DNA from: a virus
Lineage: Duplodnaviria > Caudoviricetes
DNA: 50,558 nucleotides
Direction: 5' to 3' (one strand)
Virus record (IMG/VR): IMGVR_UViG_3300030392_001100
Span: 1 to 50,558 of that record
Positions 6,882-29,237 of the stretch are shown here, in pieces (the first letter of the stretch is position 1; each line of letters begins with the position of its first letter). The notes under the pieces are model-generated. The model worked only from the letters and a program-made list of their open reading frames with translations. It was not told the DNA's origin and did no database searches. A program made the translations under genes and the position numbers.

Positions 6882-7301
6882 TCACTCAGTGGTAAGCGCG
6901 ATGAGTGGAGAGTATGTTTTTGTTGCCGTCTCTTCGGTGGAAGCGGTAATACGTACAACCGATGTGCCGGCGGAGGCAGTCGTGTCGGATGTGGCTGCAT
7001 TAAGTGTCGTGGCAAACGAACAAGAGGTAAATGGAATGCCCTCTGGGATGGTCCATGACTCTCTGGTGCTCCCGAGACAGCGAAGAATAATATCGGGTGC
7101 GGTAGAGCCTAAGACTGGACTGTAGCTCGAGAGATAGAGCTTGAGATAGTTGGTGTTGCTGCCGCTGGTGTTGTCGAAGTCAATCGAGTAGATCTTCCCG
7201 TTACCCGCAAAGGCGTCGGTGATCAACGAGTTGGTCGAGTCGCTCTCTACGGCCATTATGTAGCCGAGAGACCGATCAAACTTCGAGACTGTCAGTGCCA
7301 T
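6882..7301 (-). CDS. Small beta-rich virion protein (paralog family A)
   Basis: IYSIDFDNTSGSNTNYLKLY...GSTAPDII...IPEGIPF. Confidence 0.7.
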   Translation of the reverse strand: MALTVSKFDRSLGYIMAVESDSTNSLITDAFAGNGKIYSIDFDNTSGSNTNYLKLYLSSYSPVLGSTAPDIILRCLGSTRESWTIPEGIPFTSCSFATTLNAATSDTTASAGTSVVRITASTEETATKTYSPLIALTTE

Positions 7302-11390: not shown

Positions 11391-14300
11391 TTAACGGCGC
11401 GTGTAGATATCGCCCTCCTCTTCCTTTTTGATTTGGTCCTTGACGTCGTAGCTGTGCCTCCGGAGGTAGCGCGCCCACATGACGTCTTCTTGTGCGATCG
11501 GGATAGGCCGAACCCCAAAGAACGCACTCAACTCTTCTGGCCCGCTCAACTCCCCAGCACGAGGCCCAGCCAGGTCCGGCGAGATGTCTGAGGGCAGCTT
11601 GACCCGCGCAGGCCTCGGATAGTCCAGGTACCCGTGCCTCACGCCGTGCATGCGGACAGTCCGCAAGCCCTCCATCGCTATCTCAACGGCGCCGATGTTC
11701 GACCGGTCCAGGCTCTCGATGACATCCATGGAGCGCCCGAAGCCCGGTGTTTGGATCAGCCTGCGCAGGACCCACCAGTACTTTCCGTTGCGCGCGTGGT
11801 AAAAGCCGAGCCCAGGAAAATCCTCTGTGAGCGGCTCGTACATCGGCTGGTCGTCTATATCGAGGATGTCCTCGACTACCATGCCGCCGGTAAGCATGTA
11901 GTCCGCCTCAACGAAAAACGCCGGCACCCGGTTGTATTTGTCCAGGTCGCGCTCAAAGAAGATGTCCTCGTTAAACATGAACACGGGCCCCGCTTGGATC
12001 CATGGCGTGAGACGAGACATCATGCCTCTCAGGTGCTCGGTATCTCTAGCTGCCGACGTCATGGCCTCGGCGGAGCCAAGAACATCGACCCACAGGCCCA
12101 CAGCGTCCGTAAACGGAAGTGGCGGCAGAATAAACATCACCTGACGATTTAGGTGTGTCTGTTTTCCAATGTCTCGGAAGTACACCGGCAACCGGCCCTT
12201 CAGGTACTCGGGCAGCACGATCTCTGGGTCTTCCTCGAGATTCACCTGTTGAATCCCACGCATCAGGCGGGCCTGGTTGATGACCCGGCTCGGGTGTGTC
12301 AACACTGTGTCCCAAAACAGATCCTGATTCTTTCGCATGTAACTGTAGAACAATATGATGTCGCGCATGGACTTGCGCTCAAAGTCGGTCAGGGCGCTGT
12401 AGTCGTAGCCAACCTTCCTGGCCAGACTGGCTGCCGCATCCGGCGATGCTCCGCGCTTTAGCTCAGAGATGAACGTGCCAACACGGAAGTAGTTATCAAT
12501 AGCCGTTGCAGACTCGATCAGCGTGTCTTGCCAGCCAGAGAAGCCGCTCGTGATACGGTCGAGCACGCCGCTTGGCGTCATCTTGGCGATGTCATCCGCA
12601 ATAGCGCCCACCGTCTCTATCTTGATGAAGCTCTGGTTGAGCCCATAGCGCTGAGCCATCTCAGCAAGCATGCTGGACGTGTAGATCCGGCCATCATTGG
12701 TGACGATGGCTGGCGCATTCGGGCGGTATCCGCCCTCCTTGAACAGTCTGGCCACAACCGCAAATGTCATTCGGGTTGGGAACGCGGCGGTGATTGACCG
12801 CAACAGACCTAGACCCTGGTACATCTGGAACCAGGCGCCAACCCCAACACTCACGTAGTAGGCAGCGTTCGGGATAATGATTCCGGTTGTCACTCCCATT
12901 TTGATTCTGGCTGCCGTTATCGGGTTCATGTTCCAGAGCCAGTTGACCGTCTTGCCCACAGCGCTCCAGGCAATGACATCCTTGTCGCGCTCGATCTTCT
13001 CAGCAATCTTTGGGTCTTTGAGTGGAAGCCCCCGACGCTCAGGCAGGAACTTCTTGCTGAGAGACGAGCGGCCGTAGGTGTTTCCAACGCCAGCGGCGCG
13101 ATCGATCGCAGACTGTAGGTGCTCCTTTGCGGCGCTTGGTATGAATATTTCCGTGCCATCCGGGGCCGTAAAGGTCTCCCACTTTCCGCTGAACGTGCCG
13201 ATACCCCAGAGATCGATGATCTCCATCGCCTTCAGGTAGGCACGCATGTCGTGCAGCTTGTCCGCCCCATCGAGGGGGCCTGGAACCCGGTCACGCTTCG
13301 GATAATTTGATGGGTCCGGCGCGTTCGGTTTAATTGTCGCCACACGCTTGCGGTTCCGCCAGAGATTTCTGGTTGATCGATCGCCAGCAAGCGTAGATGA
13401 CAGGTAGTGCTTGACCCGCTCGGCATACGCGGCCTTGTCGAAGTTTGGTCCGAACTGTTTGGCGCTGTCGAGGTCGCGCACATCGAACCTGAGGTTGTAC
13501 CTGGTCAGGTCCTCCAGCAGACGATTGAATTCCTGTGTGGCCTTCATTCGAATGATCATCTCAAGCATGACCTCACTCATGTCGATGCGAGACATGCGGT
13601 CTTTCTCGAGGCCCGTGTGGTACCCGCGCTGAGATACGAAGTCGATGAGTTCCTCTAGCTCCCCGTTAAAGAACCAGTGGTAAAGCTGCATCTCCTGCGG
13701 AAGCGACAGGCCAGCATAGAGCCCTGACTTCTCTGACCCAGAAATGCTCGATGCGATCTCATAGGCCTTCTCTCTAGCGACCTCAACCTTCTTGTCCAGC
13801 GCATAGTGGATGTCATCGATCGCACCGCCAAACTCGAACTGTTCAAACTCGTTTAGATCTTCAAGGGACTGCGTCCTCAGGCGCTTCTTGTAGATCTCAA
13901 GCGTATCAATGGCAATCGCAACGGGCTCCGGAAGCAAGTTACCCTCTTCCCTGAGCAGCATCTTGATCTGATCGAGGTCCGCGAAAAGCTCTTCCGTGGT
14001 GAAGTCGGCGTACTCGTCTGCGTTCGGGAACTTGTCAGGATTCTCTGAATCCCACCGACGGCGTCTGTTGTCCTCAACGCGCTTCAGATCCTTGAACTTG
14101 CTCCGCATATCCAAGAGCGGAGATGTCTTCGACTCATCCAGCCAGATCTTGCTCGGATGAATTGGCCATTCGAGGGACTCGCGAAGCTCATTGATGATCT
14201 TTGCGTGGATCCGCTGCTCCGTTGGGCCCTCGTGGCCAGGTTCTGCGCGCGCGGCGCGTGCGATCTCACGAGCACGGCGCCTCACCCAATCTGGAGCATC

Positions 14301-17300
14301 CGCCATCCTGCGGGCCCCGCCCTGGAGAAGGGTCCTAACGATTGGATCAATCTGTGACAGTTCTTCGCCCAGGCTGAACCACGAGCGAATCCAATCCCTG
14401 CTTCCCTCAACGACTCTCCACCGCTTGTCGTCGGCAAGATTGTTTACCGCGCTCTTGAACATGTTCCAGACCGCATAGCCCATGGACGGCGAGATCCTCT
14501 CGCTGTACCCGGTCTTCCTGGAGCCAGCGCCGGCAACGACGTCATTCATGACCTCAAGCGCATTGTTATACTCTGTCGGGGTCGGCCGAGAGTAGTCGTA
14601 GTCAGGCTCAAGCATCCGGGCGTAGATGATGTTGCCCATGGGCTCGCCAGCCATATCCTCAACCATGCGCTTGAATCCGGCGGCCTGGGCCTCATTCAAC
14701 TCATAGACCTCAAACTCAACGCCGTCTCGAACCTCGGTCGTTACCAGTTTGGCGACCTCCTTCGGATGTAATTGCATGTAGTAGATTGTACGGTCGCGAA
14801 CCTGCTTATCAATACTCTTGAGACGGCTCGCCGGGACGTGGCTTCTGACTGTGATTCCGACAAGCTCCGTCGGCCCGGATAGCTTTCGTATCTGTTCAGT
14901 AGCAACATACGCGTACATCTTTGAGAACAGATCAATCGCGTCAACCTCGGTAACATCCTCGGGTAAGTCCATGGCCTGGCGCAAGTGCAGCTCTCTGGTA
15001 TCGATGCGCTCCCAACTCATCTTCTGCTGAGCCTTCCTGGTGCCACCTTCATTCCAGCGCCTGCCCATGTCAGCATCAAGGTTCACGCGAGGCATCCTGG
15101 CTTCACGGGATGCCGCAACCAGTCCAACAGCCCCGGCTGCAGCAACATCGGTGGGCCGGAAGTACGCATCAAAGAGATCGACCATCCGGCCAGAGAGGAC
15201 ATCTGGTTGGTTCCGTACACGCAGCCAGTAATCCTGCATCGTGCGGTAAAGCTCTACAAACTTGCGCCGCACCGGTCCGCCCGGCCCGATTCTGGTAAGC
15301 AAGAACCACTTCCAGGCCTCTGCGATCTGTTCTGATGCCTCAGGTGTAAGTCGGCGGCCAGGAAACTCCCACCAGCCCATGCCGGCAATCAGATCCTGCT
15401 CGATCAGTTCGGGATACACCTTGGTCGGGTAGTGCGAATACAGGTCATCTCGCCACTGCGCTCCCAGGATGGCCTCTAACAGGTGTCCGTTTTCGTGGAA
15501 CAGAACACCAATGTCGCCAGTCTTGAACATGCGAATAAGCAGGTCGCCAGTCGTCTGATCGATCTCAAAGGCTCCGCGTGGCGCCTCAGGATCACCGCTG
15601 AACATGATTCTGTGCCCCACGCCCGGCTCGTGACTGTACAGCCGCACCTCTGGATCCAGTGATGTCTTCCCGGCATTCCTGAAGAAATGCAACTCAGCCA
15701 GTTCCCGCCGAAGCTCCATCAGCGCAGCGGCAGACTGTCCAGGTATTGAGCTTGCGCCAGGGGCCACGGTCATCTCTGGCTCATAGTACCGACGGATCTG
15801 GTCCCACCTGAGCCACTGCGCGCCAAACGTGGACAGTCCAGCGTCCTTGGCCGTCGGGTCATTTCTGATGACGTTCACAGCCCTGGTATACGCATCAGTC
15901 GTGACACGCGCCTCGCCATCCTTGATTGCCTGGACCAGCGGATGGTCTGGGTACAGCTTGTCCCACTTGGTGACGGCTCGCTGGACGTTAAGCAGCGACT
16001 CTGCCCGCTCTACGCCCCTGCCAAGCCTGCGCATGTCCTTGGCCCCAACTCCAGCCGTTCTGCCAGCACTAAGCGCGGCGCGAGCCATTGTCAGTTCTTT
16101 CCGGCGAGCACCAACATCAATCTCAATTCCACGCGCGCGGACCTTCACTGGCCTTGGCGCCAACGTGGCCTGAGTGCGCGCAACCCAGTCGCTGCTGTAG
16201 TTCTCAAAGTAGTCCTTGAAGTCCACGTCCTGGCGCGTGGCGATGGTCTGCTTTGACGCGCCAACACCAGGATCGCTCTCTCCGCGACCCTGCTTCCACA
16301 TCTTGTACCAGTCACGAACGCGCTTGCTTGCATCAGGGATGATGCTTCGCCAGTACTTGCGGATCATGTGAACGTCGATGGCGGCAACATTCGAATTCGC
16401 TGGGTCTGTCAACGAAAGCGCGAATGAAGAGGTCTTTGTGCCCATCCCCCGAGTGCTCGACTGTACACGCATGATGAACTCATCAAACATCTCGTCTGGG
16501 TGCGGCTCGAACCACAGATACTGCTGCTTGCCTGACTCCACGCGGGCGAGATCTTCATCGAAGGCGACTAAGAGATCCGCAATCAAGCGCGGATCGATCT
16601 GGCTTCTGGCAACGAAGCCCTCCGTTAGCCTGGCAACTGGCGATGATGGAATGAACTCACCAGCGGTGTACCTCAGGAACTCGCGAAGGCTCTCGTACTC
16701 CAACTCCCGACGCTTAATGCCGGCCTCAGACTGCTTGATCCGCTTGCGGATAGAGGTCTTGCGGGCCTTGGCTTTCTCGGTCTTGAGCAGCGCCTTGTCA
16801 GCGTCGATGTCCTGGCGCGCAGTGTCCATCTCAAGCTCAATGCGGTCCATCCTGCCGATGACATCCACTCTGGCATCCCTGTATGCCTTCTCGTTGAGCT
16901 TCTTGAGTGTGTCCCATTCCCAGGCCTGGAACGGCGTCCCCGGCTCCCACCACTTGCGGAATCCGCCACCACGGACTTCAGCAAGGATGCCCTTGTGGAT
17001 GTACTTGGCGTCCGCCTTTGAGCCCGCAGTGATGGCGAGCCCCACGAGGTACTGGGCCTCCTCTCTGCTCAGGTCTTCGTAGATTGCCCTGGCCTCGTCC
17101 AGGTACGCGTCAATCACAGACTCGCCGTACACAGCTTCACCACGGCCGACCAGTTGCTCGGCCGCATCTCTGGGCAGACCTACTTCAACGTATACCTTCG
17201 ACAGGGCGTCCAGGTCCTGCCCCTCCAGTTCCTCCGGGGTAAACCGGCGGACGTCTTTCGCTCGGTTTTCAAACCATGCCCGCTTGCGGCCTCGAGACTC

Positions 17301-20300
17301 GCGGATCAGGTTCGCCGTTTGCTTCAACTGCGCACGAGTACGTGGCCGGATGGCTGCAGTCAGTAGCTGATTCTCGGTGATATTGGTCCCAGCGCTCGTC
17401 ATTGCAAGGATGAGGATTCCAAGCTGATCGACGGCATGCACATTGAGCCGGTCCAGGTAGGCCTGGCTGGGCGTGGCTCCGGCTTCAGGCGCTTCTGGCC
17501 TGTATTTGGTCGTCCCCATTGAGTTTAGGTGCTTGCGGTAGAGGGCGATCGTCAGGTCTTCGTAGGCCTCTGACGCGGCGCGCATCACCGCCGCGATGTC
17601 CGCGTTGCTGTAGACCCGGTCCTCAGGCATCGTGAAGCCAAGAGCCTCATCGATGATGTCCTCTGGAATCCCGGCGGACTTGTAGATCTTCCGCAGACGA
17701 GACGCATCCTTGCCCGGCATGTTCTCGATGTCCTGCAGATTGAACTTCGGATCCAACATGATAGGGCGTCTGGTGACGTAATCGAGATCCGGGAACGAGA
17801 ATGTACCCTCCGTTCCTCCCGGAACCAGCGCAACTGAGCGGTCTGTACGAACGAATCTTACGTTGAAGCTGATGGATCGAGGCGGACCATTGGGGTCATC
17901 CGGCAGCGAAAGCTCAAGCTCGACCTTCTGGCTGACCACCTTGAGTGCTGCCACCTTGTCCGGCTGCAGCCTCTTCTTTGCCTCGTCGATGGCGTCTTTG
18001 GAGAGTCCAGACTGGTCCAGGCGCTGCCCAATGGCCTTGCCCACAGCCTCGTGGGGCTTCCCGCCCTCAATGTCGAGGTGCCGGCCAAGCTCTGGCGTCA
18101 GGTCTCTGACGACTTCGGAGTGTCTAGCTGGGGTTGGGTCAGGAAGACGCTCGCCGTCAGTTCCCCGGCCTGGGGCGCCTTTATCAGAGGCTCCACGGTT
18201 CGCGGTTTGGCTTCTGGCAAGGTTTGAACCTTTAACGCCTTCCTCCAGGCTGACGTCAAATCCTGCTCGACTCGTGTGCCTGATGTCTTCTGCTTGGAGC
18301 CCTTCCGAGATGGCATCGTCATACCCCTTGATTTCATAGGCCCCATGGGCTCTTCCACCCTCTGGAGCGTTCACATAAATGTTCTCACGGATGTGGCCAG
18401 CGGCAACAGTTCCGAGACCGTTGGCCTCCGCGAAGTCGCTAAGCGCAGCAACTGCGTGCCGGGTGATCGTCAAAAACTCGGCCGGGCTGACCGGTCGCGA
18501 GGACATCTCGGGCAGATAGACCAGTTCGATGCTATCAGCGCTCCTGGCGAGCGCGATCCCTGCCTGCTCAAGCTCAGCAACCCGAAGGAAGTCAGCCAGT
18601 TCCGGGCGGGCCATGATTCGATCGTTTAGCTCGATGCGCATGGTCGGAGCGCGGGGCCCACCATCCGGCCCATTGAACAGCAGGTCGGCAACAGTCTCAG
18701 CGGAAATCGGCGCGCTGACGTCATCTAGGTAGCCCTCTGGCAGGTCAGACGAGCCCGTTGACTCGCGAATGACCAGTGACTCCTGCTTGTAGGCCTTGCT
18801 GAACTGGGACAATCGTCCACGGATCATCGTGAGATCACCGCCCAGTTCCAACTGCACGAACGGCTGGCCAGGCTCTCCACCCCATCCAGGAAGCCCACCC
18901 TCATCGAGATCTGGGCCCCTCACGCCACCAAGCTGGATATCATCCGGATGCGCATTCTCGGTCAGAACGCGGTTCAGGTCCGGCTTGAAGATGTTGTAGA
19001 CCTCGGTGAGCACCTGGTCCAGTTCCGCGTGGATTGAATCCCGCGCGTTTAGCTGCATCTCGGTATAGCGCCCGCCCTGCTTTGTCCTGGCCTGCTCATC
19101 GAGCTTCTTGAGGTCTCTGAGGAGCGCCCTGTACCGGCTGTACCGAATACCAACCTCAGGAAACTCGCCGCGAGCCCCGCTGATGCCCACCAGCAGCCGG
19201 CTGGGTCCACGGCTTTCGACCGGCGGCTTCATCATTCCAGGCTCAACACCGTAGCGTGTGGCAAACTCGAGAGCGTTCTCTGCTGGCACCTGAACCGGTA
19301 CAGTTGTCTCTCCCTGGTCTCGCAGTGCGGCGAACCGGTGTCTCCCGTCAGAGAACCCAACGGGCTTCTCGGCATCTGGACCCAACGAGACCCGTGGAAC
19401 CTCAATGGGCTGTCCGCTTCGGGCAAACGCCAGGAAGCGATCGAGCTTGGCGATGCTGGCCTTGCCCTTTCCGCTTGTGGCGTCGATGTCCTCTCGCCTG
19501 GGGACGTAGAAGCCGCTGTCCTTGGCCCAGTCGGCGTCCAGCTTGGCTACGTCGGCATGGATGGTTCGATAGCCGCCATCGTGGGCGCGCTCCAGGTAGG
19601 TGAGACCGACGCGCTCAGCCTCCGCAACACCAGGGCGGGCAAACTCAGGCTCTATGCGAGAGGCGCGAACAGCCCATGCGCGAACTCCCTCATCCAGATA
19701 ATCATCCAGCTTCTTCAGGGCTCTCCCCGCGTCCTCAAATCGAAACTCGCCAAGAGCTACCGCAGCGTCATTTGCCAGTCGTTGAACCTCGTTGTAGACC
19801 GGAATCTTGCGGTGTTCGTCGGCATACTCCTGACCCAAACGACGAAGCTCTGCTTCAACATCTGCCCATTTATCTGACCGTGCGCCAGCCGCAACTTCCC
19901 GGGCATGTTGACTCTTCATGCCATCAAGGAGCGAGTAAGGTTTACCTCGATGCGTGAGAAAGCCGCCTATTTGCTCGGCCATGCCGTGAATCTTGCCGCG
20001 TATCGTGCCATAGCCGCGTTGTTTCTCGTCGCCCTTTTTCCCCATCCGATGAAGCAAATCACCAATATGCTCTACTTGGTGACCATACTCGGGCACGCGA
20101 ACGTCAGATTCGCGAATACGCATCGCCGCTTGTTCTGGCCCCTCATAGCGCTGAACGTCCGACATAGCCTTAAACGCTTCGTTGATTTCCTCTGGAGTCT
20201 CAGGCAGCTTCGCCGCAGCCGGGGCCTCAGGCTCTACGCCTCGGGGCCGGATGACGTTGGAGTAGATGATGTCTGCAGCAGTTGGCTCAGGCTCTCTGGG

Positions 20301-23300
20301 TCCAGGCTCTGCACCTCGCTCAGGGCCTCCTTCCACTTGCTCGAGTCGTCCCCGTGGCGCTCCACCGTCATCACCCTTTGCTCCAGGTAGCCGATCACGA
20401 ACTCCTGCTCGTCCTTCAGCGGGGAGTTTTTCTCCGGGCTCCAGAGACTTTGCAACATTTTTCGTACCAAACTGTTCATAAGAATCCCTCAGGGCTTTGT
20501 AGTCGTCCCAGTGCTCATCGAGCACGCGGCGCATGGCGCGCTTGATCGGCTCCTCCACCTCAAGGTCGGCAAGCCGTGTGTGTATGTTTATCTCTTCTCT
20601 GACAAACGGATCGCCGTGCCCCGATTTCCTCATGTGGGTAGCCTCGTGGATCAGGACAGACCACCACGCGCCCACGACACCTTTGTCGGATTTCGCGACG
20701 TTCATCAGCGGGTTCAAGAAAAACGCCCTGTACGGAACCCTGATATGAACGCCTTCGTAGGTTTTGTCGAGAGAGATACCGCTGGCGTAAGGCTTCATGG
20801 GGTCGCTTAGACCCCCGTACCCAGGAACCTTCGCCATGCGCTCCTTGAACTCAACAATAATGCTGCCGATTTTGGCAAGCATTGGCTCTGCGGATTCCGG
20901 GATTTCAAGGGTCGTGTTGTTATGAAACAGCGGCCTTTTGGGGTCAACAGCGACTGTGTCAATGAAGTCCTTCGCAGTCTTAAACTCTTTTTTGGCCTCA
21001 AAGCTTTCTGCAATCTGGCGCTCCGATGTCTTTACCTCTCCCTCGCTAATCCTGATGGCCGGCTTCATCCCCGCCATGATCTCTTCAATCTCAACGCTTC
21101 TTTCGAGCTTCCTGGTCTCAGGAAGAAATCGCGGCTGAACCTGCTCTCCGCCGGCCATCAGGTCATCGAGGTTCACCCTCTCCATCGGTATAGCGGTCTT
21201 AAAGACATCTGATGTTTCTGCGGCCTCAAGCCCGTGGCCGTACTCCGCGAGGAAACCTTCCATCGCTTGGATGTCGGCCAGGATTGTACTCCTATACTCC
21301 TCCCTGGTCATATTGAAGGGGTAGGAACCATCGATGGTATCGACGTTCGGCTTTACATCAAAAATAAGGTGGTACGGCAAGGTGCCCATGAGTGGAAGTG
21401 AGGCACGGTCGAATTGCCAAACGCCAGCGGATAGGACCTGCCTGCTCGTCCACGAGATTTTGTCGAGCTTCGTATTGCCCACATAAATATCAGCCTCGCC
21501 CCAATCAAACGTGGCGGTAGTCCAGAGCTTGAACTCGTCGGCATCAAAATCACGCCCTAGAACCTTGCCGGGATCTCTGGTGGTTACCACTACGTCGCCT
21601 TCCCCCCAGTTTTCACGAGTGACATGGTGCTCCCTGATTTGAACATCACCAATCAACGGCTTGGTAAAAAACGGAGTAGTGTCGCCATCGATTGACGGAA
21701 GTTGGACCTCCGCCTTGTACTCATGCGACTTTCCAGCGTATTCGACGTACTCATCAAACGCCCAAGCCTTTACGCTCGTTCCGTTTGGCTCTGTCGTTTG
21801 CGTTGTCTTGATCTTGATCTTCCCAGACAGGATTATGTCTGGCGTGACCCTTGCTACAGTCTTTTGGCCATTGCGAACTGTGACAAGCTCAAGCGCTCTG
21901 GAGCCAAACAAAAAACCCATCTTGGCTTTACCGTACCCGCCAGAGCGTCTGCCTGGTGGAAGGTCGCCCTTGTAGCTCCCTGACGCGGTAAAGAACGCAT
22001 CCTTGACAACATCGCGCAGCATTCCGCTTCCGTTGTCGGCCACAGTGATACTTCGGTCGTTGTGGTCAATGGTGACATCGATCCTGCCCTCACCCGGTGA
22101 CATCTCGCCCAGATACATGGACCCATCAACGCCATCCCAAGCGTTCTGGACAAGTTCCTTGATTGTGACATCGGCCCAGCCCGCCTTATACATGTTGAGG
22201 CCTTCTTGCTGGGATTGGCGCTCAATGTCGTTCTTAAACGCAATCGTCTCTTCAATTCCACCTTCCGGCAGTTCTTCAACCTGACCCGTTCCCTCGTATT
22301 TTATTTGGTCAAGCTGAGCGGCAATTTCAGCAACCTTGCGCTCCTGGGCAAGGGCCCACCATGGCGGTCTCCTTTGGGGTAGCTTGGAGTGGACCATTTC
22401 AGCCACCATGCCCCAAGTCTCGTCGTCAACGTCCTTGTATAGGTGTCGGTGACCGTTGATATGGTCCTCAAACTCGGTCAGATTATCAGTCAACGAGTAC
22501 TCGTAGGCCTCGCCTGCTGATACAATCTCGCGCACGATTGAATCAGCAAAATGGTCGGCAAGCTCCTCGCCACCCTCAAGCGCCTCGATTCTGGTCAAGA
22601 CCGCAGAGCGCGCGACTTCGTCTCGAAGTTGATTCAGGTACCAGTCGAACCGTTCCGGGCCTTCGAACCGGGGATCCAAGACTTCAGCGCGCGGGATTTC
22701 AGACTCGGGGATGATCTCACGAACCTTGTCCAGCACACGCTCCGAAAATGGGGTCCACGTTCCCCTATACATGCCAACGTCATCAAAGTCGTAATTAATG
22801 GTTGTCTCGGGGTTGTCCGGATACCAGCCATCAAGCTGATTAGAAACATGATCCTCAATGCTCCGACCAGCTTGCTCAGGGTGATGGTGCACCGCGCTTC
22901 GGATATTCATCGCAAAATCGTCCGCAACACTATCGGCATCGCGCTTCTCACCCTCGGAGAGGGGCCGGCGGACATGTCGGGGCAACTCAGACTCGGGGAT
23001 GATCTCACGAACCTTGTCCAGCACAAGCTCCGCAAATGGGGTGTACCTTCTCCCAGGGCCGGGCTCGAAGAGCGCCGCATAGCCACCTTGAAACACCTCC
23101 GCCTCATCAATAACCCACGATGCTACGCCCTCTAAGGTCGGACTCTGTAGATGCTTTGGCTCATATCTCATGTAGGCCCTGATAACTTCCACGACCTGAT
23201 CGGCAGCGAACGTGGCCAACTCTTCCTGGGGGTCGGGTCGGATAGCCGGCTCTGGGGCCTCAGGCTCAGGCGCCTCGTCCACCTTCTTGCCGAACATGTC

Positions 23301-26300
23301 CTTCTGGATGGACTCAGCGTCTGGCGCTTCCGCTATTCGTTTTCCTGCTCCGGCAAGCTCTTCACGGTACCCCTCAAGCTCCCGAGAAATGGCTCCAATA
23401 TCAGATTGTGCTCTAAGTCCAGGCTGAGAAGCACCCCCTGCACTCGTTCTGCGGAATCTTGCGTTGATTCCGGCCTCTTCGAGGACATCTTCATAGTTTT
23501 CAACAACTCTTTCGCTGATTCTTTGCTTAAAAGCTTCTGCGTCATATGCCGACTCCCCGCCTATATGTTTCTCCAGCCTGCCAGGATCATAACCACGCCG
23601 CCCAATTATGCCTGAAAAATACTCTACCGCGACCTCGCGAAACCTTACGGCCCTCTCCCGACTGCCTGTGGCCGCCTCGATGTCGTCTGCGTACAGGTGG
23701 ATTGCCTGCATGAGCCCAACGTTTCTAGCTTCAGTGAGCGAGGCATCCATCTGCTGAACTACGCCTGAGGCCGCAAACTCGTTCCATCCACCAATGGCAC
23801 CTTTATCTCTGACTCTCTCAGCAAGGTTCCAGTCAGGGCCCCAACCAGCCTCTCCCGCTGGCCGGTCAAGTACAAAGCCTATACCGTCCGGCGCACCAAT
23901 CGCCCGAATCGAGGCGGAATCCCCAAGCATGCCTCCTACAATATCGCCAGGGCTGGGCGGGGTACCTGTTGGGTGTACGTGGGTAAAGATTAGGTTTTGA
24001 TGCAACGATGAGCGGATGTAGTCCTCTGGCTCCAGCGGAACGTGGGATACCTCACCGCGTCGGCGGCCTACCTGTTTCCCGCTTAAGGCATCAACCCAAG
24101 CGCCGTGTTCCATCTCTGAGCCAATGAGCGCACCCTCAAGCTCGCCAAGGTCCATGTCTGCGGTAATGGGTCCGACAGATGGCTCATCATAGTCGAGTGG
24201 GCTCTTTTCAAATTTGGGGTCCATGGCCCTGGGGAGCTTTGCGGGATCTCCGCCGAAGCGCCCTAACTGCATCGCGCTGTAGACCAGGGCCATACCTGCC
24301 TGGTTGTGCAGTGGAAGCTCAGCAAATCCAAGCTCTTCAAGCTTGGACTGGAAAGCCGGAGAGTCAATCTCGATACCCAATCTTTCGCCAAGCCTAAGGA
24401 TCGAGTGCATGTCCAGGGTGTGCATGAACGAGAGCGATTCTTCGGCAACAGGCGCGGCGGGCTTTTCAGCAGTCCGCTTAGCGAATTCATAATCACGAAG
24501 AATGGCAATTTCGGCATCAAAGGCATCTGCAGCAGCATCACCCATATTGGCGCGAATAGCTTGGCTAAGACCGGTCCGCACCTGTTCGTGCTCGACCTTA
24601 GTTTCTTTCCCGTATCTCGTTGCTCTGGTGGTAACCTCAAACACTTCGCCTTCAGGCGAAAACTCACGATCAATGATCCCCTCGCCGACTCTTTCGTGCT
24701 CTGAGCGCGCCTTCGCTATTGCCACACGCTCTGCTTCAGTCTTTCCGGCTGTAGGTGGGGGAAGCTCCGGAACTTCCGGAGCGGCGGCAGTAGGCTCCCC
24801 AGCATGCACCCGGCCAAGAGTCTCAGCGCCGACGCTCCGCACCTCAGGATGGATTCCGCTGTACCTGGCGTTCGGGCCAGGTGTGCCACCAACCAAATGC
24901 CGCACCTTGTTGAAGTAATCTTCGGGGGTCTTGATTGATGGAAGCTTGGGGTCCTGAGCGAACCGCATGCCCTCGATCTCCATCAGCGCCATGTACAGGC
25001 CAACGTGATCTTGCTCAATAATCCCCTCTTCCGAGAGCTTCCGAATCTGCTCGAATACTGCATTATAGCCCTCTCCTGCCCTAAGACCGCGCGCAGTCGG
25101 CGTGCCCCTCTCAACGATCTCGTTGACGCTGTTGATCATCGAGCCGAAGGTCTGCCGCGAGACCCCCATGACCAAATCCTCAAGCGCTTCGTACCCGCCC
25201 TCAACGCCAAGCCGGCCAGCCACAACCTCAAGCTGACTTCTGATCAGCTTCTGCATGGGCGACTTGTGGATGTTCCCCGAGAGAACCGACTCTTTGATCA
25301 TCGCCATGATGACGTGATTGGATACAGAATATGAGTCCGCGTACTTGGGCGCCTTGTCTGTGCCGTAAACCAGCTTGTGGTACATCCTGTACGCAGGCGG
25401 CGAGGCCATGGCCATGTACATCTTGGTGCGGGGCACCCCTTTTGGGATCAACCTGCGTGGGATGGTCGCCATCCGATGTGCAGACATGCCGGCAGAGATC
25501 GGTACAGCCGCGCTGAACTCTTCCCAGGGGAAGATCCAATCGAGCAATACCGCCAGGTTCTGTGTGACTGCGTACTTCGTTGATCTGCGATCCCAGCCTG
25601 CGCGGTGCGCCAGCGCCATCTGGTTCCAGGTCAATCCTCCAGAACCAGATGCGACCGCAGCAAAGACCCGGTCCAGGTACGCTGAGCCGATAGTGCGGAT
25701 GCCGAGACCATAGGCGAAGTCAATGCCGGCCGGCGTGATGTAGGGGATTGGGGCCTCAAGCCAGAGTTCCTGGAGCCCCATGATCACCCGCATGGTACGA
25801 CCGAAGTTGCTCTCTACAACATTGACTGCGCCAACTTTCTCGTTGTCCTTGACCCGCTTGAGCATCATCTCGCCAAACGCACGCTCCATGATCTCACCGG
25901 CATGACCGCCAGTTGCGCCGCGAAGCTCGTGAGCCGCCCTCGCGGATTTCGCGATGGACTCAGGACTCGGCATTGCGTGAACAATTACTTGTTTACCGCC
26001 GCGTCTGATTCTATTGAGCAGCAACCCCGCCTCGGCCAGTTCCCAGAACGGCACCGCGTCGAGAGACTCTTGAATCTTGTCGTCATCTGCCCCGGCCTCA
26101 ACCTGACCGATTGCCCGCTGCAGCGAGCGGAGATCCTCTCGATCCACCAGCAGGGGCGTCTTTAATAGGACGTTCCTCAGCGATCTCGGCTGGACCGTTG
26201 TCACCGTATTGATCTGACGCCTGACCCAGCTATCGTCCATGTCTGGCCAGGTCTCTCTAATTGCGCGCTCAACGGTGACCCGATGGTCCACATAGGCCTG

Positions 26301-27506
26301 CTTCGGGATGTCCACTGGAGCGAGCATCAGGTACTGATTGCGGAACTGCTCCTGGAGGAACTTCACATGATCAGGATTGGCGTCAGCTTCCTGCTGCGAA
26401 ACACTGTCCTTCGCTGCCTGCACGCTGACCATGGTGTCAAAGTTCATGCCAACATCAGCCAACTCAAGCTGCCTTGACATCCGCTCTTTGTCTCCCTCGG
26501 CCCAATCCGGATCGACCTGACCGTGAAGCCAACTGTAGAGATCAAACGCCCTTGACTTGACTGATGCTCTTGTGGCCAAGGCGACCAAACCCCTCGGGGC
26601 CACCAACTGTGTCGGGGCCGCAAGCTTTCCGGGGATAAGCATGGAGTGCGCCTCTCCCTCACTGGCCTTGATTAGCGGTACTGACTCCCAGAACTCATCC
26701 TTGTCATAAGAAAATGCAACACCCGTGCCGGCATACCCCATCCCAGCGCCAAACAGCGCCGAGAAGCCGGCCCCAACAGCACCCATTGGGCCGAGGGCAG
26801 AGCCAGCAAGCATCGCGCTAGCGACTGGAGTAAGCCCACCGACTAGCCCACCAACGATCGCGCCTGTTTTAAGCTGCTCCTCAGTCGCTCTTGGGTTTTC
26901 TGGGAGGTACAGCCCCTGAGACTGGACATCTTCGAGTGGACGAGTGCCCTGGGTGCCCTCCCAACTCTCTATGGCTTGCTCACTGATGCCCATGTCGCGC
27001 ATTTGAGCGTACATGCGCTGGCGCACGGTAATCATTTCCTCCATCGGCGCAGCGGGCGGCTCTCCCTCCTCTGCTTCCTTCGGCATTTGAATGACTCTGC
27101 GGCCTACGACGCGAGACAGCTTGCCTCTGGATGCCCTGCTCACCAGATCCGGATCAGGGCCCCGATAGGGTGGCAGATACTTGAACTTGTCGGACTCATG
27201 CTTGGCTAGCACGCGCGCCCGATCTGGATCGATGCCAGGGTGCGCCTGAAGGATCGAGTATTCAACATTCTGGTGGTACTCGTTGACGAGCGCCTGGTAC
27301 TCGCCCAGTTCGTTGCCCGAAACAGGCTGGCGCGCGTACTCAGGGGGCTCTATCCTCGCTGGCTCAGCGGGCTTAGTGGGAGGCATTGCGTCCTCACCGC
27401 CGAACGGCTCCATGGCGCCAGACGATAGTGCGCGCTCGAGGACCTCCTCGTCGGTGACCCCGGTGTAGTCATCTCCGATGACCTCAGGCTGTTGCTCGTC
27501 TGCCAT
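11391..27506 (-). CDS. Giant (5371 aa) polyvalent internal virion/ejection protein with JAB, GHKL ATPase, HExxH, ParB-like, HhH-GPD-like, MPTase and LPD38-like regions
   Basis: Uninterrupted 16.1-kb ORF after the ejection-protein genes; motifs HVHPTGTPPSPGD, KELVQNAWD/DNGSGM/GGYGKAKMGF, HEATH, DGRHR, GMGTKTSSF...AIDVHM, HENGH...EQIAE, DYSALTDFER...LFYSY. Confidence 0.85.
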   Translation of the reverse strand: MADEQQPEVIGDDYTGVTDEEVLERALSSGAMEPFGGEDAMPPTKPAEPARIEPPEYARQPVSGNELGEYQALVNEYHQNVEYSILQAHPGIDPDRARVLAKHESDKFKYLPPYRGPDPDLVSRASRGKLSRVVGRRVIQMPKEAEEGEPPAAPMEEMITVRQRMYAQMRDMGISEQAIESWEGTQGTRPLEDVQSQGLYLPENPRATEEQLKTGAIVGGLVGGLTPVASAMLAGSALGPMGAVGAGFSALFGAGMGYAGTGVAFSYDKDEFWESVPLIKASEGEAHSMLIPGKLAAPTQLVAPRGLVALATRASVKSRAFDLYSWLHGQVDPDWAEGDKERMSRQLELADVGMNFDTMVSVQAAKDSVSQQEADANPDHVKFLQEQFRNQYLMLAPVDIPKQAYVDHRVTVERAIRETWPDMDDSWVRRQINTVTTVQPRSLRNVLLKTPLLVDREDLRSLQRAIGQVEAGADDDKIQESLDAVPFWELAEAGLLLNRIRRGGKQVIVHAMPSPESIAKSARAAHELRGATGGHAGEIMERAFGEMMLKRVKDNEKVGAVNVVESNFGRTMRVIMGLQELWLEAPIPYITPAGIDFAYGLGIRTIGSAYLDRVFAAVASGSGGLTWNQMALAHRAGWDRRSTKYAVTQNLAVLLDWIFPWEEFSAAVPISAGMSAHRMATIPRRLIPKGVPRTKMYMAMASPPAYRMYHKLVYGTDKAPKYADSYSVSNHVIMAMIKESVLSGNIHKSPMQKLIRSQLEVVAGRLGVEGGYEALEDLVMGVSRQTFGSMINSVNEIVERGTPTARGLRAGEGYNAVFEQIRKLSEEGIIEQDHVGLYMALMEIEGMRFAQDPKLPSIKTPEDYFNKVRHLVGGTPGPNARYSGIHPEVRSVGAETLGRVHAGEPTAAAPEVPELPPPTAGKTEAERVAIAKARSEHERVGEGIIDREFSPEGEVFEVTTRATRYGKETKVEHEQVRTGLSQAIRANMGDAAADAFDAEIAILRDYEFAKRTAEKPAAPVAEESLSFMHTLDMHSILRLGERLGIEIDSPAFQSKLEELGFAELPLHNQAGMALVYSAMQLGRFGGDPAKLPRAMDPKFEKSPLDYDEPSVGPITADMDLGELEGALIGSEMEHGAWVDALSGKQVGRRRGEVSHVPLEPEDYIRSSLHQNLIFTHVHPTGTPPSPGDIVGGMLGDSASIRAIGAPDGIGFVLDRPAGEAGWGPDWNLAERVRDKGAIGGWNEFAASGVVQQMDASLTEARNVGLMQAIHLYADDIEAATGSRERAVRFREVAVEYFSGIIGRRGYDPGRLEKHIGGESAYDAEAFKQRISERVVENYEDVLEEAGINARFRRTSAGGASQPGLRAQSDIGAISRELEGYREELAGAGKRIAEAPDAESIQKDMFGKKVDEAPEPEAPEPAIRPDPQEELATFAADQVVEVIRAYMRYEPKHLQSPTLEGVASWVIDEAEVFQGGYAALFEPGPGRRYTPFAELVLDKVREIIPESELPRHVRRPLSEGEKRDADSVADDFAMNIRSAVHHHPEQAGRSIEDHVSNQLDGWYPDNPETTINYDFDDVGMYRGTWTPFSERVLDKVREIIPESEIPRAEVLDPRFEGPERFDWYLNQLRDEVARSAVLTRIEALEGGEELADHFADSIVREIVSAGEAYEYSLTDNLTEFEDHINGHRHLYKDVDDETWGMVAEMVHSKLPQRRPPWWALAQERKVAEIAAQLDQIKYEGTGQVEELPEGGIEETIAFKNDIERQSQQEGLNMYKAGWADVTIKELVQNAWDGVDGSMYLGEMSPGEGRIDVTIDHNDRSITVADNGSGMLRDVVKDAFFTASGSYKGDLPPGRRSGGYGKAKMGFLFGSRALELVTVRNGQKTVARVTPDIILSGKIKIKTTQTTEPNGTSVKAWAFDEYVEYAGKSHEYKAEVQLPSIDGDTTPFFTKPLIGDVQIREHHVTRENWGEGDVVVTTRDPGKVLGRDFDADEFKLWTTATFDWGEADIYVGNTKLDKISWTSRQVLSAGVWQFDRASLPLMGTLPYHLIFDVKPNVDTIDGSYPFNMTREEYRSTILADIQAMEGFLAEYGHGLEAAETSDVFKTAIPMERVNLDDLMAGGEQVQPRFLPETRKLERSVEIEEIMAGMKPAIRISEGEVKTSERQIAESFEAKKEFKTAKDFIDTVAVDPKRPLFHNNTTLEIPESAEPMLAKIGSIIVEFKERMAKVPGYGGLSDPMKPYASGISLDKTYEGVHIRVPYRAFFLNPLMNVAKSDKGVVGAWWSVLIHEATHMRKSGHGDPFVREEINIHTRLADLEVEEPIKRAMRRVLDEHWDDYKALRDSYEQFGTKNVAKSLEPGEKLPAEGRAGVRDRLPGAKGDDGGAPRGRLEQVEGGPERGAEPGPREPEPTAADIIYSNVIRPRGVEPEAPAAAKLPETPEEINEAFKAMSDVQRYEGPEQAAMRIRESDVRVPEYGHQVEHIGDLLHRMGKKGDEKQRGYGTIRGKIHGMAEQIGGFLTHRGKPYSLLDGMKSQHAREVAAGARSDKWADVEAELRRLGQEYADEHRKIPVYNEVQRLANDAAVALGEFRFEDAGRALKKLDDYLDEGVRAWAVRASRIEPEFARPGVAEAERVGLTYLERAHDGGYRTIHADVAKLDADWAKDSGFYVPRREDIDATSGKGKASIAKLDRFLAFARSGQPIEVPRVSLGPDAEKPVGFSDGRHRFAALRDQGETTVPVQVPAENALEFATRYGVEPGMMKPPVESRGPSRLLVGISGARGEFPEVGIRYSRYRALLRDLKKLDEQARTKQGGRYTEMQLNARDSIHAELDQVLTEVYNIFKPDLNRVLTENAHPDDIQLGGVRGPDLDEGGLPGWGGEPGQPFVQLELGGDLTMIRGRLSQFSKAYKQESLVIRESTGSSDLPEGYLDDVSAPISAETVADLLFNGPDGGPRAPTMRIELNDRIMARPELADFLRVAELEQAGIALARSADSIELVYLPEMSSRPVSPAEFLTITRHAVAALSDFAEANGLGTVAAGHIRENIYVNAPEGGRAHGAYEIKGYDDAISEGLQAEDIRHTSRAGFDVSLEEGVKGSNLARSQTANRGASDKGAPGRGTDGERLPDPTPARHSEVVRDLTPELGRHLDIEGGKPHEAVGKAIGQRLDQSGLSKDAIDEAKKRLQPDKVAALKVVSQKVELELSLPDDPNGPPRSISFNVRFVRTDRSVALVPGGTEGTFSFPDLDYVTRRPIMLDPKFNLQDIENMPGKDASRLRKIYKSAGIPEDIIDEALGFTMPEDRVYSNADIAAVMRAASEAYEDLTIALYRKHLNSMGTTKYRPEAPEAGATPSQAYLDRLNVHAVDQLGILILAMTSAGTNITENQLLTAAIRPRTRAQLKQTANLIRESRGRKRAWFENRAKDVRRFTPEELEGQDLDALSKVYVEVGLPRDAAEQLVGRGEAVYGESVIDAYLDEARAIYEDLSREEAQYLVGLAITAGSKADAKYIHKGILAEVRGGGFRKWWEPGTPFQAWEWDTLKKLNEKAYRDARVDVIGRMDRIELEMDTARQDIDADKALLKTEKAKARKTSIRKRIKQSEAGIKRRELEYESLREFLRYTAGEFIPSSPVARLTEGFVARSQIDPRLIADLLVAFDEDLARVESGKQQYLWFEPHPDEMFDEFIMRVQSSTRGMGTKTSSFALSLTDPANSNVAAIDVHMIRKYWRSIIPDASKRVRDWYKMWKQGRGESDPGVGASKQTIATRQDVDFKDYFENYSSDWVARTQATLAPRPVKVRARGIEIDVGARRKELTMARAALSAGRTAGVGAKDMRRLGRGVERAESLLNVQRAVTKWDKLYPDHPLVQAIKDGEARVTTDAYTRAVNVIRNDPTAKDAGLSTFGAQWLRWDQIRRYYEPEMTVAPGASSIPGQSAAALMELRRELAELHFFRNAGKTSLDPEVRLYSHEPGVGHRIMFSGDPEAPRGAFEIDQTTGDLLIRMFKTGDIGVLFHENGHLLEAILGAQWRDDLYSHYPTKVYPELIEQDLIAGMGWWEFPGRRLTPEASEQIAEAWKWFLLTRIGPGGPVRRKFVELYRTMQDYWLRVRNQPDVLSGRMVDLFDAYFRPTDVAAAGAVGLVAASREARMPRVNLDADMGRRWNEGGTRKAQQKMSWERIDTRELHLRQAMDLPEDVTEVDAIDLFSKMYAYVATEQIRKLSGPTELVGITVRSHVPASRLKSIDKQVRDRTIYYMQLHPKEVAKLVTTEVRDGVEFEVYELNEAQAAGFKRMVEDMAGEPMGNIIYARMLEPDYDYSRPTPTEYNNALEVMNDVVAGAGSRKTGYSERISPSMGYAVWNMFKSAVNNLADDKRWRVVEGSRDWIRSWFSLGEELSQIDPIVRTLLQGGARRMADAPDWVRRRAREIARAARAEPGHEGPTEQRIHAKIINELRESLEWPIHPSKIWLDESKTSPLLDMRSKFKDLKRVEDNRRRRWDSENPDKFPNADEYADFTTEELFADLDQIKMLLREEGNLLPEPVAIAIDTLEIYKKRLRTQSLEDLNEFEQFEFGGAIDDIHYALDKKVEVAREKAYEIASSISGSEKSGLYAGLSLPQEMQLYHWFFNGELEELIDFVSQRGYHTGLEKDRMSRIDMSEVMLEMIIRMKATQEFNRLLEDLTRYNLRFDVRDLDSAKQFGPNFDKAAYAERVKHYLSSTLAGDRSTRNLWRNRKRVATIKPNAPDPSNYPKRDRVPGPLDGADKLHDMRAYLKAMEIIDLWGIGTFSGKWETFTAPDGTEIFIPSAAKEHLQSAIDRAAGVGNTYGRSSLSKKFLPERRGLPLKDPKIAEKIERDKDVIAWSAVGKTVNWLWNMNPITAARIKMGVTTGIIIPNAAYYVSVGVGAWFQMYQGLGLLRSITAAFPTRMTFAVVARLFKEGGYRPNAPAIVTNDGRIYTSSMLAEMAQRYGLNQSFIKIETVGAIADDIAKMTPSGVLDRITSGFSGWQDTLIESATAIDNYFRVGTFISELKRGASPDAAASLARKVGYDYSALTDFERKSMRDIILFYSYMRKNQDLFWDTVLTHPSRVINQARLMRGIQQVNLEEDPEIVLPEYLKGRLPVYFRDIGKQTHLNRQVMFILPPLPFTDAVGLWVDVLGSAEAMTSAARDTEHLRGMMSRLTPWIQAGPVFMFNEDIFFERDLDKYNRVPAFFVEADYMLTGGMVVEDILDIDDQPMYEPLTEDFPGLGFYHARNGKYWWVLRRLIQTPGFGRSMDVIESLDRSNIGAVEIAMEGLRTVRMHGVRHGYLDYPRPARVKLPSDISPDLAGPRAGELSGPEELSAFFGVRPIPIAQEDVMWARYLRRHSYDVKDQIKKEEEGDIYTRR
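22699..23042. repeat. 56-bp direct repeat (22699-22754 and 22987-23042), 2 mismatches, 288-bp period, inside the giant gene
   Basis: tcagactcggggatgatctcacgaaccttgtccagcaca is identical over 39 nt; encodes TPF(A/S)E(L/R)VLDKVREIIPESE twice. Confidence 0.9.
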
Positions 27507-27536: not shown

Positions 27537-29237
27537 TCAGTCAGCAGACTGACCCCCGGATTGTTCCTGGATCATCCGCTGGATTCTGAACTGCTCGATA
27601 GCTTGCTTGAGTTGCAGCAACCTTGCGGCGTCTGCGCGGGCTGCGAATTCTTTGCGACTTAAAAGCGCCATTCCGTAGCTGTGGCGCCGGGCACTGCGTC
27701 CAAGCTCTCTTGGGGCGAGCATGGCAACATCAACGCCAAGAGCGGATATTTCATCTTCTTTTATTCCTGCGGCCTCATTCGCGAACTTCTGCGCTCTGTC
27801 CAGTTCCTTATCCTCGAAGAGTCCGAGGATATTGTGGAGTTCGGCCAAAGTGGCATCATCGATGAGTTCCAGCCTGCTTCTCAACGTCTCAAAAAAATCA
27901 GGAGGCCGGTAATCCCTTGGGTGGGCCCCGCTGGCTTCACGGATCGCGTTGATCTCACGGTAGTTTGCCGGCCTTGGAACCTGCTGAAGTAGCCGATAAG
28001 ACTCATTTGGAACCGGAATAATCCGCCGATCAGCCTCGGCAGGCGTCTCAACGAGGCCCTCCCAGCTAAATCCAGGATCAATTGACATGTCCGTCAAGAC
28101 CTGGACCGCATCCCTGTACGCTTCGCGGGCCGTGTCTGCCCATCTGTCTGCCTCAAAGAAGTCATCGTATGATTTTTGTAGATTGGTGTTCAGTTCAGGC
28201 TTTGGTGCCAGGGCCCTCCACTCCTCCTCGCGCTCCCTGCCGGTGGCCTTCTCTTCGTATTCCTCCATCCGCAGTCTAGCGTTGCTGAACGCAGTTGCGG
28301 CGGGAATGACGGCGGCTTCAGCTTTCTTGAAGTGCCCACGAAGTGTGTCATAAAGCTGTTTCTGCTCTACAGCGGTCTTGACACTTAACTGTTGACGCAT
28401 CTCGCCAAGAAGCGTCCCAGAGTACCGCTCTTCTTTCTCTCCTTCCGGGAAGAACTCGTGCGGGTACATGGTTCCAACCTCTGACTCCGAGACTTGGTGT
28501 GGCTTCTCCTCCGAGGGGGATCCCCTTAGTGCTTCCGCTGTGGGCCCGTGCCAAGGGACAGGCCGGTCATCAAGGGCCCCCGCTTCTGGCGCATCTGGCT
28601 GATACCCTGCGTAGCGCAGAATGGTGTCAGTGAACCATTCTGAAACATCTGCTTCAGCCATCGGTGGCGTGGCGGGGGCGGCTATGGCCGGGGGCGCTTC
28701 GGCTGCCTCAACAGCAGGCTCCGGCCCCGGTGCTGGCGGCCCTTGTAGCGCCTCGTGTTCGGCCTTTGACCTATCCCACAGTTGCTGGTTGGATTGCAGC
28801 CAGGTCCGACCCTCTCTCGCGAGAACCGGATCCCCGGTAGCCTCACCCTGCGCGATCTCGAGTTCGTGAAACTTTTTCTTCGCGCCGTAGTACGTATCGG
28901 CCACACCGTACCACTGCCCGATCGTCTCTGGATCATGCCCTTGAAGGTACTCTGGATGGGTTTTGCCTTGTTCCTTCGCTAATTGTTGCAGCCCCGAAAA
29001 GGTTTCCCAGGCAGCGACCTTCTTTGTTTCCGCATCCTGAAGCCGGCTCTCTAGTGTCTTGTCAGCATCAGCATCAACATCAGCATCAGCGTCGGCATCA
29101 ACGTCTGCATCGGCAGCAGGCGGAGCGGCAGGCGGAGCGGCAGGCTCGGCAGCAGGCGGAGCCACGTCGGACCACGACTTGATTATGGTTTCCCAGGCAT
29201 CCTTGGCCCGTGGCTCCTCTCGTGCCGGTGCAGCCAT
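27537..29237 (-). CDS. Putative internal virion protein, alpha-helical with low-complexity N-terminus
   Basis: 566 aa; PAAPPAA and ADADVD repeats; lies between other ejection-protein candidates. Confidence 0.7.
   Translation of the reverse strand: MAAPAREEPRAKDAWETIIKSWSDVAPPAAEPAAPPAAPPAADADVDADADADVDADADKTLESRLQDAETKKVAAWETFSGLQQLAKEQGKTHPEYLQGHDPETIGQWYGVADTYYGAKKKFHELEIAQGEATGDPVLAREGRTWLQSNQQLWDRSKAEHEALQGPPAPGPEPAVEAAEAPPAIAAPATPPMAEADVSEWFTDTILRYAGYQPDAPEAGALDDRPVPWHGPTAEALRGSPSEEKPHQVSESEVGTMYPHEFFPEGEKEERYSGTLLGEMRQQLSVKTAVEQKQLYDTLRGHFKKAEAAVIPAATAFSNARLRMEEYEEKATGREREEEWRALAPKPELNTNLQKSYDDFFEADRWADTAREAYRDAVQVLTDMSIDPGFSWEGLVETPAEADRRIIPVPNESYRLLQQVPRPANYREINAIREASGAHPRDYRPPDFFETLRSRLELIDDATLAELHNILGLFEDKELDRAQKFANEAAGIKEDEISALGVDVAMLAPRELGRSARRHSYGMALLSRKEFAARADAARLLQLKQAIEQFRIQRMIQEQSGGQSAD
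29060..29162. repeat. Coding short tandem repeats (6-bp AD/VD units and 12-bp PPAA units)
   Basis: tcagcatcagcatcaacatcagcatcagcg... and ggcaggcggagc repeats. Confidence 0.8.

Follow-up and report, generated by a model that had tools for sequence, protein, structure and literature searches.

A giant gene with two conserved ends and one cargo slot

The window analysed here, a stretch of 50,558 nucleotides with 0 N that covers positions 1 to 50,558 of the IMG/VR record IMGVR_UViG_3300030392_001100 (a linear virus record, ~70% complete), is dominated by a single giant gene. It lies at 11391..27506 on the minus strand, starts with ATG and encodes a protein of 5371 amino acids (aa) and 599 kDa with 0 internal stops, as had been noticed in the initial annotation, which described one open reading frame (ORF) covering about a third of the window; the coordinates of its parts given below are all on the minus strand. 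The same annotation had raised the possibility of an assembly chimera, which we rejected as unlikely because the protein recurs at its full 5371 aa in two other assemblies, with 4 and 1 residues changed, and because both ends are collinear in relatives of 5207 and 4463 aa. Among the large genes of a podophage virion operon on the minus strand the giant comes last, after those for terminase, an 844-aa protein, the major head protein, an SU10-adaptor-like protein, a PHROG 'internal virion protein', a lytic transglycosylase (SLT) and three unknowns of 330, 806 and 566 aa, and the same order was found in three relatives retrieved via the head protein (G001-G003).

A search with the whole protein returned five relatives, four of which share its first ~870 and last ~1400 residues and differ in their middles, the fifth (P0007, 6136 aa) sharing only aa 1753-2385. 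With the last 1200 aa as the query, 1828 relatives at E<=0.001 were found among 1.84 billion representatives. The family set comprises 157 rows, namely the 150 matches listed out of these 1828 (1678 being left out) and other homologues, and the slot counts given below use the 62 rows in which both inner edges of the slot were found by edge profiles; the 95 rows in which one anchor was missing, mostly fragments, and 31 cluster-mates of P0001, P0004 and P0005 were left out of the family counts. Exact-word scans of IMG/VR with either end of the giant and tblastn searches of 50,697 GenBank phages with aa 1-3000, 3001-3950 and 3901-5371 yielded no close relatives. Since close cluster-mates of the relatives come from Tara data, a marine origin of the giant-protein family is hinted at.

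The conservation of the ends and the swapping of the middle, which the initial annotation had expected of an alignment of homologues, was seen throughout the 62 relatives. The N-terminal block has a median length of 875 aa (coefficient of variation, CV, 0.19) and the C-terminal block one of 1408 aa (CV 0.07), while the insert between them ranges from 0 to 5246 aa (CV 1.0). The slot is empty (insert <=57 aa) in 16 rows and loaded in 46; the insert of the window protein, ~3110 aa and 342 kDa, is the seventh largest, and the longest relative reaches 7,833 aa. Every recurrent cargo module sits within the slot: a JAB domain in 12 rows, a block of GHKL and HExxH domains in 4, an HhH domain of type A in 3 and of type B in 15, together with ART-PolyVal, PBECR5, C5 methylase and DUF7178 domains in various relatives. 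In the window protein the N block occupies aa 1-873 (24888..27506) and carries a Gly-rich hydrophobic stretch at aa 215-239 in the hydropathy profile; it is 43-45% identical to its counterparts in P0003 and P0004 and 22-26% identical to those in P0005 and P0006, and has no match in Pfam or PHROG. The C block occupies aa 4121-5371 (11394..15146), and it is to this part that the 1828 relatives belong.

The closest comparisons locate the variation at one point. The pairs P0074/P0077, P0071/P0072 and P0142/P0150 differ by whole modules at a single insertion site. P0004 and P0015, although in one 90% cluster, are distinguished by 191 aa inserted near aa 1178, within the slot, so that even very close phages differ in their cargo. 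At the same gene slot G003 has a 3500-aa version loaded with ART-PolyVal and HhH type B, and G001 a 2517-aa version that is empty. G001 also has a separate 2232-aa ORF (L024:4633-11331; G001 40633-47331, minus strand) with ART-PolyVal and one HELVH and with neither scaffold edge, possibly a cargo that has moved out of the cassette.

The explanation that we consider the most probable, at about 0.6, is that the window protein is a polyvalent ejection protein, which would be packed in the virion and ejected, and which consists of two end blocks and one cargo slot whose content would be freed by the protein's own zincin. The slot bears directly on a quite unlikely alternative, namely that processing takes place in the producing cell before packaging, only the scaffold or only a part of the cargo entering the virion and the rest working late, e.g., in DNA quality control. 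The giant gene is late by its position, P1 DdrB is described as being cut before packaging (PMC5512222) and a chain of 600 kDa is a large load to eject. Volume is no bar to packaging, however, as one copy takes ~725 nm3 of ~110,000 nm3 at an assumed inner radius of 30 nm; moreover, with such early processing nothing would keep the cargo in one slot of a gene at the ejection position, and none of the recurrent modules was found as a stand-alone gene in G001-G003.

Cargo domains of the window protein

The motifs pointed out in the initial annotation (JAB, GHKL, HExxH at 2287, DGRHR at 2720, QES at ~2907, HhH and HENGH at 4004) were all found where it had placed them. Only the GHKL domain exceeds its Pfam cut-off, the other cargo assignments being made from motifs and weak profile matches. 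The modules had been described as separated by Pro/Glu/Ala linkers; three 50-aa windows (901-950, 1401-1450 and 2401-2450) are indeed enriched in these residues, at 42-50% versus 24% overall, and since there are only three, such a linker does not stand at every module border.

The first module is a RadC-type JAB domain (aa 1103-1223; 23838..24200) with the motif THVHP..S..D at aa 1175-1188. The residues of its metal site, E...HxH-x6-7-SxxD (E1133, H1176, H1178, S1185 and D1188 here), are invariant at the E, HxH, S and D positions in 12 of 12 aligned rows. The best PDB match of its profile is RadC (2qlc, E 0.0043), and in Pfam RadC was matched by 3 of the 12 members (best E 0.052) and Prok-JAB by one (E 0.035), all below the cut-off. 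The activity of an isopeptidase once ascribed to this domain is thus unsupported, because for the nearest clade, RadC, Iyer 2017 suggests nucleic acids as the substrate (PMC5512222).

A two-copy unit of ~96 aa follows (aa 1425-1612; 22671..23234). The spacing of the copies, 288 nt, agrees with the repeated 96-aa unit described earlier, but clear similarity extends over only 76 nt at 87%, or ~25 aa; a third copy was looked for and rejected, none being convincing, and the unit has no match in the other 156 rows, which makes it unique to the window protein. The same is true of the domain of aa 2435-2625 (19632..20204), which has no match in these rows and no meaningful one in Pfam.

The GHKL ATPase of the Hsp90/MutL type (aa 1763-1922; 21741..22220), as proposed initially, matches Pfam HATPase_c_3 at E 5.3e-7 and HtpG at E 7e-4, and its Bergerat motifs ExxxNxxD, DxGxG and GxxGxG are present as KELVQNAWD (1783-1791), DNGSGM and GGYGKA. 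It is followed by a middle domain and a metallopeptidase-like domain (20439..21674) with the motif HExxHx5H (HEATH at 2287; H2287, E2288, H2291 and H2297), which is invariant in 4 of 4 rows and gives weak matches to Wss1 WLM (E 0.21) and YgjP-like proteins (E 0.11). GHKL, middle and HExxH domains form one block of ~630 aa that the window protein shares with P0003, P0004 and P0099, and also with P0007, to which it is not otherwise related. This block (20439-22220 in the window) moves between unrelated giants, one of them with LPD39, helicase and methylase domains.

The ParB/Srx-like domain (19227..19604), with DGRHR at aa 2720, has weak top matches to SbnI (E 0.14) and PFIN (E 0.068) and no Pfam match to DdrB-ParB; domains with a related DG/EGxHR occur in P0003 (two), P0039 and P0075. 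The earlier assignments of this and the HExxH domain were thus sustained to the extent that the expected families come out on top of weak matches. The 'QES' module (aa 2778-3074; 18285..19175) consists of two sub-units found in 4 and 7 of the 62 rows, and has no PDB profile match. The QES near 2907 is not conserved, as two of the four rows that cover it have QD, and a catalytic triad at this place was rejected.

The last cargo module, ~810 aa long (15696..18134), has large insertions and ends in a domain that resembles the HhH glycosylases and apurinic/apyrimidinic (AP) lyases of the OGG2 type. It was found in 7 rows (the window protein, P0003, P0065, P0098, P0092, P0084 and P0087). Its residues of interest are K3691, D3711 and H3713 within GMGTKT..IDVH at 3687-3713, as well as Q3897, W3901, D3902 and R3905; K3691 and D3711 are invariant across the rows of types A and B, and they align with residues changed in the PDB entries 9o02 and 9o01. 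In a search with a joint profile of the window protein and six type-B rows, the top four PDB rows were all OGG2 8-oxoguanine glycosylase/AP lyases (9o00, 9o01, 3fhf and 9o02; best E 0.013), which bears out the HhH-GPD-like region of the initial annotation. The likeness lies in the register G-x-G-x-K...D-[RH]; unlike OGG2, the window domain has large insertions, and the E of 0.013 comes from a profile dominated by the type-B relatives. A profile of type A alone found nothing in the PDB, and an hhalign comparison of the two types was in register at E 0.063 with a probability of 0.9%. The AlphaFold model of aa 3125-4120, made with 7 sequences, reached a predicted local distance difference test (pLDDT) of 51, and Foldseek and VIA returned coiled coils only. 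No homologues of the HhH domain alone were found among proteins of 179-571 aa, and the HhH region of a relative had no match in GenBank phages. In the Atlas features the module lies near DUF7178 clusters (0.90-0.91, low recognition); it has no Pfam match to DUF7178 (PF23802), and hhalign with the DUF7178 region of P0074 gave E 0.18, out of register. The HhH of type B (e.g., in P0186, L019:8466-18968) is the commonest profiled cargo, present in 15 of the 62 rows and often near the MPTase. A virion RNA polymerase was considered as a further candidate and rejected, given that there was no such match in Pfam or PDB and that the RPB1 rows in the joint HhH profile search had E >1.

Among the family rows, the full set of JAB, GHKL, HExxH, QES and HhH type A is present only in the window protein and in P0003, which has another MPTase and a second ParB-like domain in place of the repeat and the unique domain. 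The catalytic residues of the JAB, GHKL, HExxH and HhH domains are conserved across distant rows, which argues against the cargo being mostly decayed or neutral baggage at a tolerant loop, with the zincin serving as a protease for peptidoglycan or host proteins. Such an explanation would account for the existence of empty versions, which show the cargo to be dispensable, and for the two inserts unique to the window protein, and the authors of a study of phi24B propose peptidoglycan degradation for the metallopeptidase of its gp47 (bioRxiv 10.64898/2026.04.10.717836). A wall-cutting role, however, would not depend on the cargo, and the operon has a separate SLT; we regard this explanation as very unlikely.

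Processing and delivery of the cargo

The MPTase-type zincin domain that opens the C block (aa 3972-4120; 15147..15593) carries HENGH at 4004-4008 and a downstream Glu in SEQIAEAW. It has no Pfam MPTase match, and its motif is intact in 48 of 80 aligned rows. The presence of the motif largely follows that of the cargo: of the 46 loaded rows, 38 have an undamaged anchor HExx(x)H (36 strictly, and two as HExxxH), compared with 2 of the 16 empty ones. The remaining eight loaded rows have an HExxH inside the insert (expected in 0-4% of shuffles), which in two of them is possibly the anchor itself. The pair P0074/P0077 illustrates this relationship, as the C blocks are 83% identical and one protein combines a 1666-aa cargo with HEFAH, the other no cargo with PQFAK. 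On trees, no independent pair opposes the link between cargo and protease.

Short motifs of the form [FY][QS] flank the slot. In the window protein the candidate cleavage linkers are ARYSG (aa 880-884; 24852..24875) after the N block and RLYSH (3955-3959) and IMFSG (3967-3971) before the C block (15594..15653). Among the loaded rows with an intact protease, 18 of 38 windows following the N block and 19 of 38 preceding the C block contain the motif; the background is 12-14%, and 1000 shuffles gave no more than 10-11 such windows. In the empty rows with a dead protease the corresponding figures are 2 of 14 and 0 of 14. From these sequences we infer that cleavage may occur at the flanking linkers, and the behaviour of the zincin at 4004 fits a protease that processes the cassette itself better than it fits a payload directed at the host. 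Self-processing of polyvalent proteins by MPTases was proposed by Iyer 2017, who cite the cleaved P1 DdrB (PMC5512222).

The main rival of such processing, in our view an unlikely one, is that the cargo stays tethered: the protein would be delivered whole and uncut, its domains would treat the emerging DNA on the conduit, and the zincin would have a packaging or structural role. The retention of the MPTase fold in empty rows, even where the motif is dead, speaks in favour of a tether, as does the fact that most of the window cargo looks DNA-directed and would fit at the DNA exit. Yet loaded rows keep the catalytic residues and empty ones lose them, the slot has a short motif on either side, and a structural role would need no catalytic residues.

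Several further points weigh against freeing of the cargo by its own zincin, and two of them favour a tether: few [FY][QS]-type motifs lie between the cargo modules of the window protein, and Iyer 2017 points to N4 vRNAP, ArdC and TraC1 as proteins with MPTases that remain uncut on packaging or transfer (PMC5512222). With the anchor motif, the trees gave 6-7 independent pairs, of which ~4 agree with the cargo-protease link and 0 oppose it (p 0.125, not significant); when inner HExxH were counted too, 5-6 pairs agreed (p 0.063 and 0.031), a biased count because an inner HExxH is impossible where the slot is empty. HENGH is retained in two of the empty rows. The [FY][QS] pattern was picked after viewing the windows, three patterns having been tried, and an unbiased Gibbs motif sampler, dominated by the Pro/Gly composition of the linkers, performed poorly when cross-tested, with 6 and 9 of the 38 passing the threshold; the association of linker and HExxH on the tree was not significant (p 0.6). 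The assignments of the JAB, ParB, WLM and HhH domains have weak E values of 0.004-0.2. The scaffold matches no known ejection protein in Pfam, PHROG or PDB profiles, and its fold resemblance to the cyanophage A4 pre-ejectosome 9k3a_A is only a lead within the background range (Z 4.7 by VIA, 178 residues aligned, root-mean-square deviation 5.6; the longest alignment listed and the best over the confident core). Finally, in contrast to the layout, the single slot, the domain motifs and the place of the gene, which are read directly, virion presence, ejection, cleavage and every other functional step ascribed to the window protein are reached by inference.

The ejection role is suggested by the gene position, the empty forms that consist of scaffold only, and the precedent of phi24B gp47, an LPD38 protein with a metallopeptidase that was detected in virions by proteomics (bioRxiv 10.64898/2026.04.10.717836). 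In the language-model features of the Atlas, the C block lies next to LPD38/LPD39 clusters at 0.93-0.96 (LPD38 0.96, recognition 2510). The LPD38 family of Pfam (PF18857) gave 0 matches in the window protein (the control of one search was also without a match) and matched one of 43 relatives at E 0.061, so the LPD38-like end of the initial annotation is a resemblance in language-model features only, and on these comparisons the block seems LPD38-like and not a member of LPD38. The model of its last 771 aa (pLDDT 76) has a helical core with no strong fold match, and the scaffold profile found only short chance-like matches in the PDB.

In the favoured explanation, that of a self-processing ejection protein, the phage head would contain the chain and release it into the cell before the DNA, as the gene position, the LPD38-like features and phi24B gp47 suggest. 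The end blocks would make up that part of the DNA conduit which lies in the inner membrane or the cytoplasm, and therefore the empty versions would still work. The zincin would cut at the x-[FY]-[QS] linkers that flank the slot and free a cargo of ~340 kDa, whose domains may act mostly on DNA at entry: the OGG2-like glycosylase/lyase, the RadC-type JAB and the ParB-like nuclease/NTPase could act on modified bases of the incoming genome, by repairing or stripping them, or could attack the DNA of the host; host proteins could be removed or degraded by the GHKL-protease block. Enzymes freed in this way would provide counter-defence before the expression of any phage gene.

Neighbouring genes and comparable systems

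The genes upstream of the giant, all on the minus strand, were assigned by Pfam and PHROG searches: the terminase (47110-48675), the major head protein of 349 aa (41225-42274), the SU10-adaptor-like protein of 488 aa (38919-40385, E 3e-6), the 769-aa protein labelled 'internal virion protein' in PHROG (36606-38915) and the lytic transglycosylase (32616-33446; Pfam SLT E 1.6e-12, PHROG internal-virion/endolysin). The 844-aa gene at the portal position has no family match, and 17 of the 18 scaffold-family or neighbour proteins have none in PHROG. The giant had been placed after pilot, transglycosylase and internal-virion genes; the last two were recognised, but none of the searches identified a pilot gene. 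The two large genes of 566 and 806 aa occupy 27537-31657 (minus strand), where they separate the giant from the SLT gene, and at this position G001 and G003 have one gene of 872-975 aa and an SLT-like gene with no clear similarity to the window genes. A gene for an FmdB-like zinc ribbon (43992-44585, minus strand) lies between the probable portal and head genes and is kept in G001-G003. On the plus strand, a recombination cluster of YqaJ exonuclease, RecT and SSB (947-3926) is convergent with the virion operon. The window also has at least three copies of a ~125-aa paralogue family with no clear Pfam match (6495-6872, 6882-7301 and 49913-50308, minus strand), members of which are paired in tandem at more than one site in the relatives, with six in G003 and four in G001.

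Ejection proteins of podophages include those of the T7 gp16 type. The giant resembles them and the cyanophage A4 protein (PMC12002296) in that its gene is the largest and comes behind small ejection and lytic genes; these proteins, however, have 1000-1700 aa and at most wall-lytic domains, and their homology with the giant is not established. The likeness to phi24B gp47 extends to size, LPD38(-like) and metallopeptidase domains and a proposed ejection role, gp47 differing in its length of 2811 aa, its cargo of LPD5 and LPD1 and the assignment of its peptidase to peptidoglycan. P1 DdrB, virion-borne and processed, likewise combines a ParB-like domain with an MPTase, and P1 DarB is virion-borne and injected, with an anti-restriction role; both are accessory head proteins of a myophage, and the window protein has no methylase-helicase.

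The assignment to the phage polyvalent proteins made in the initial annotation agrees with what was found: unrelated activities in one chain, a zincin with a downstream Glu, a location among virion genes and mosaic orthologues. As in the proteins described by Iyer 2017 (PMC5512222), a giant chain from a late operon joins unrelated enzyme domains, among them a zincin MPTase and domains of the ParB-like and RadC-like kinds; ART-PolyVal and PBECR5 are present in relatives, and injection with self-processing is predicted. The main text of that paper has 0 mentions of GHKL, HSP90 or glycosylase (its FTP supplement may list GHKL/HhH architectures), lists RadC for polyvalent proteins of conjugative elements only, unlike the 12 of 62 phage rows with a RadC-type JAB here, and describes neither a fixed scaffold of two blocks with a single slot nor empty forms nor a cleavage motif. 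Our literature searches found no account of a single-slot cassette, the cleavage motif, an injected OGG-like domain or this cargo mix, with the same reservation for the supplement. The polyvalent class is thus already known; what is new, as far as these searches show, is the single-slot cassette and this mix of cargo, and the family-level pattern is more interesting than the cargo list of the window protein.

A more far-reaching and doubtful proposal concerns the family as a whole. The ejection protein of a widespread podophage family may be a self-cleaving cassette that holds <=5,200 residues of any cargo between two [FY][QS] cut sites and keeps its zincin only while cargo is present, the commonest loads being glycosylase-like and RadC-like enzymes that would rid the entering genome of base damage, whether oxidative or imposed by the host.

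That polyvalent proteins process themselves by means of their MPTases has been predicted since 2017, with few ways of approaching the question, and the giant-protein family makes it directly testable by offering a named residue (E4005), candidate cut sites and natural pairs of loaded and empty sisters. The family also shows how large a protein load may pass through the ejection machinery of a podophage, with a chain of 600 kDa here and 7,833 aa in one relative, and the glycosylase-like, RadC-like and GHKL-protease modules, presumably injected, are candidate counter-defences that would act before phage gene expression.

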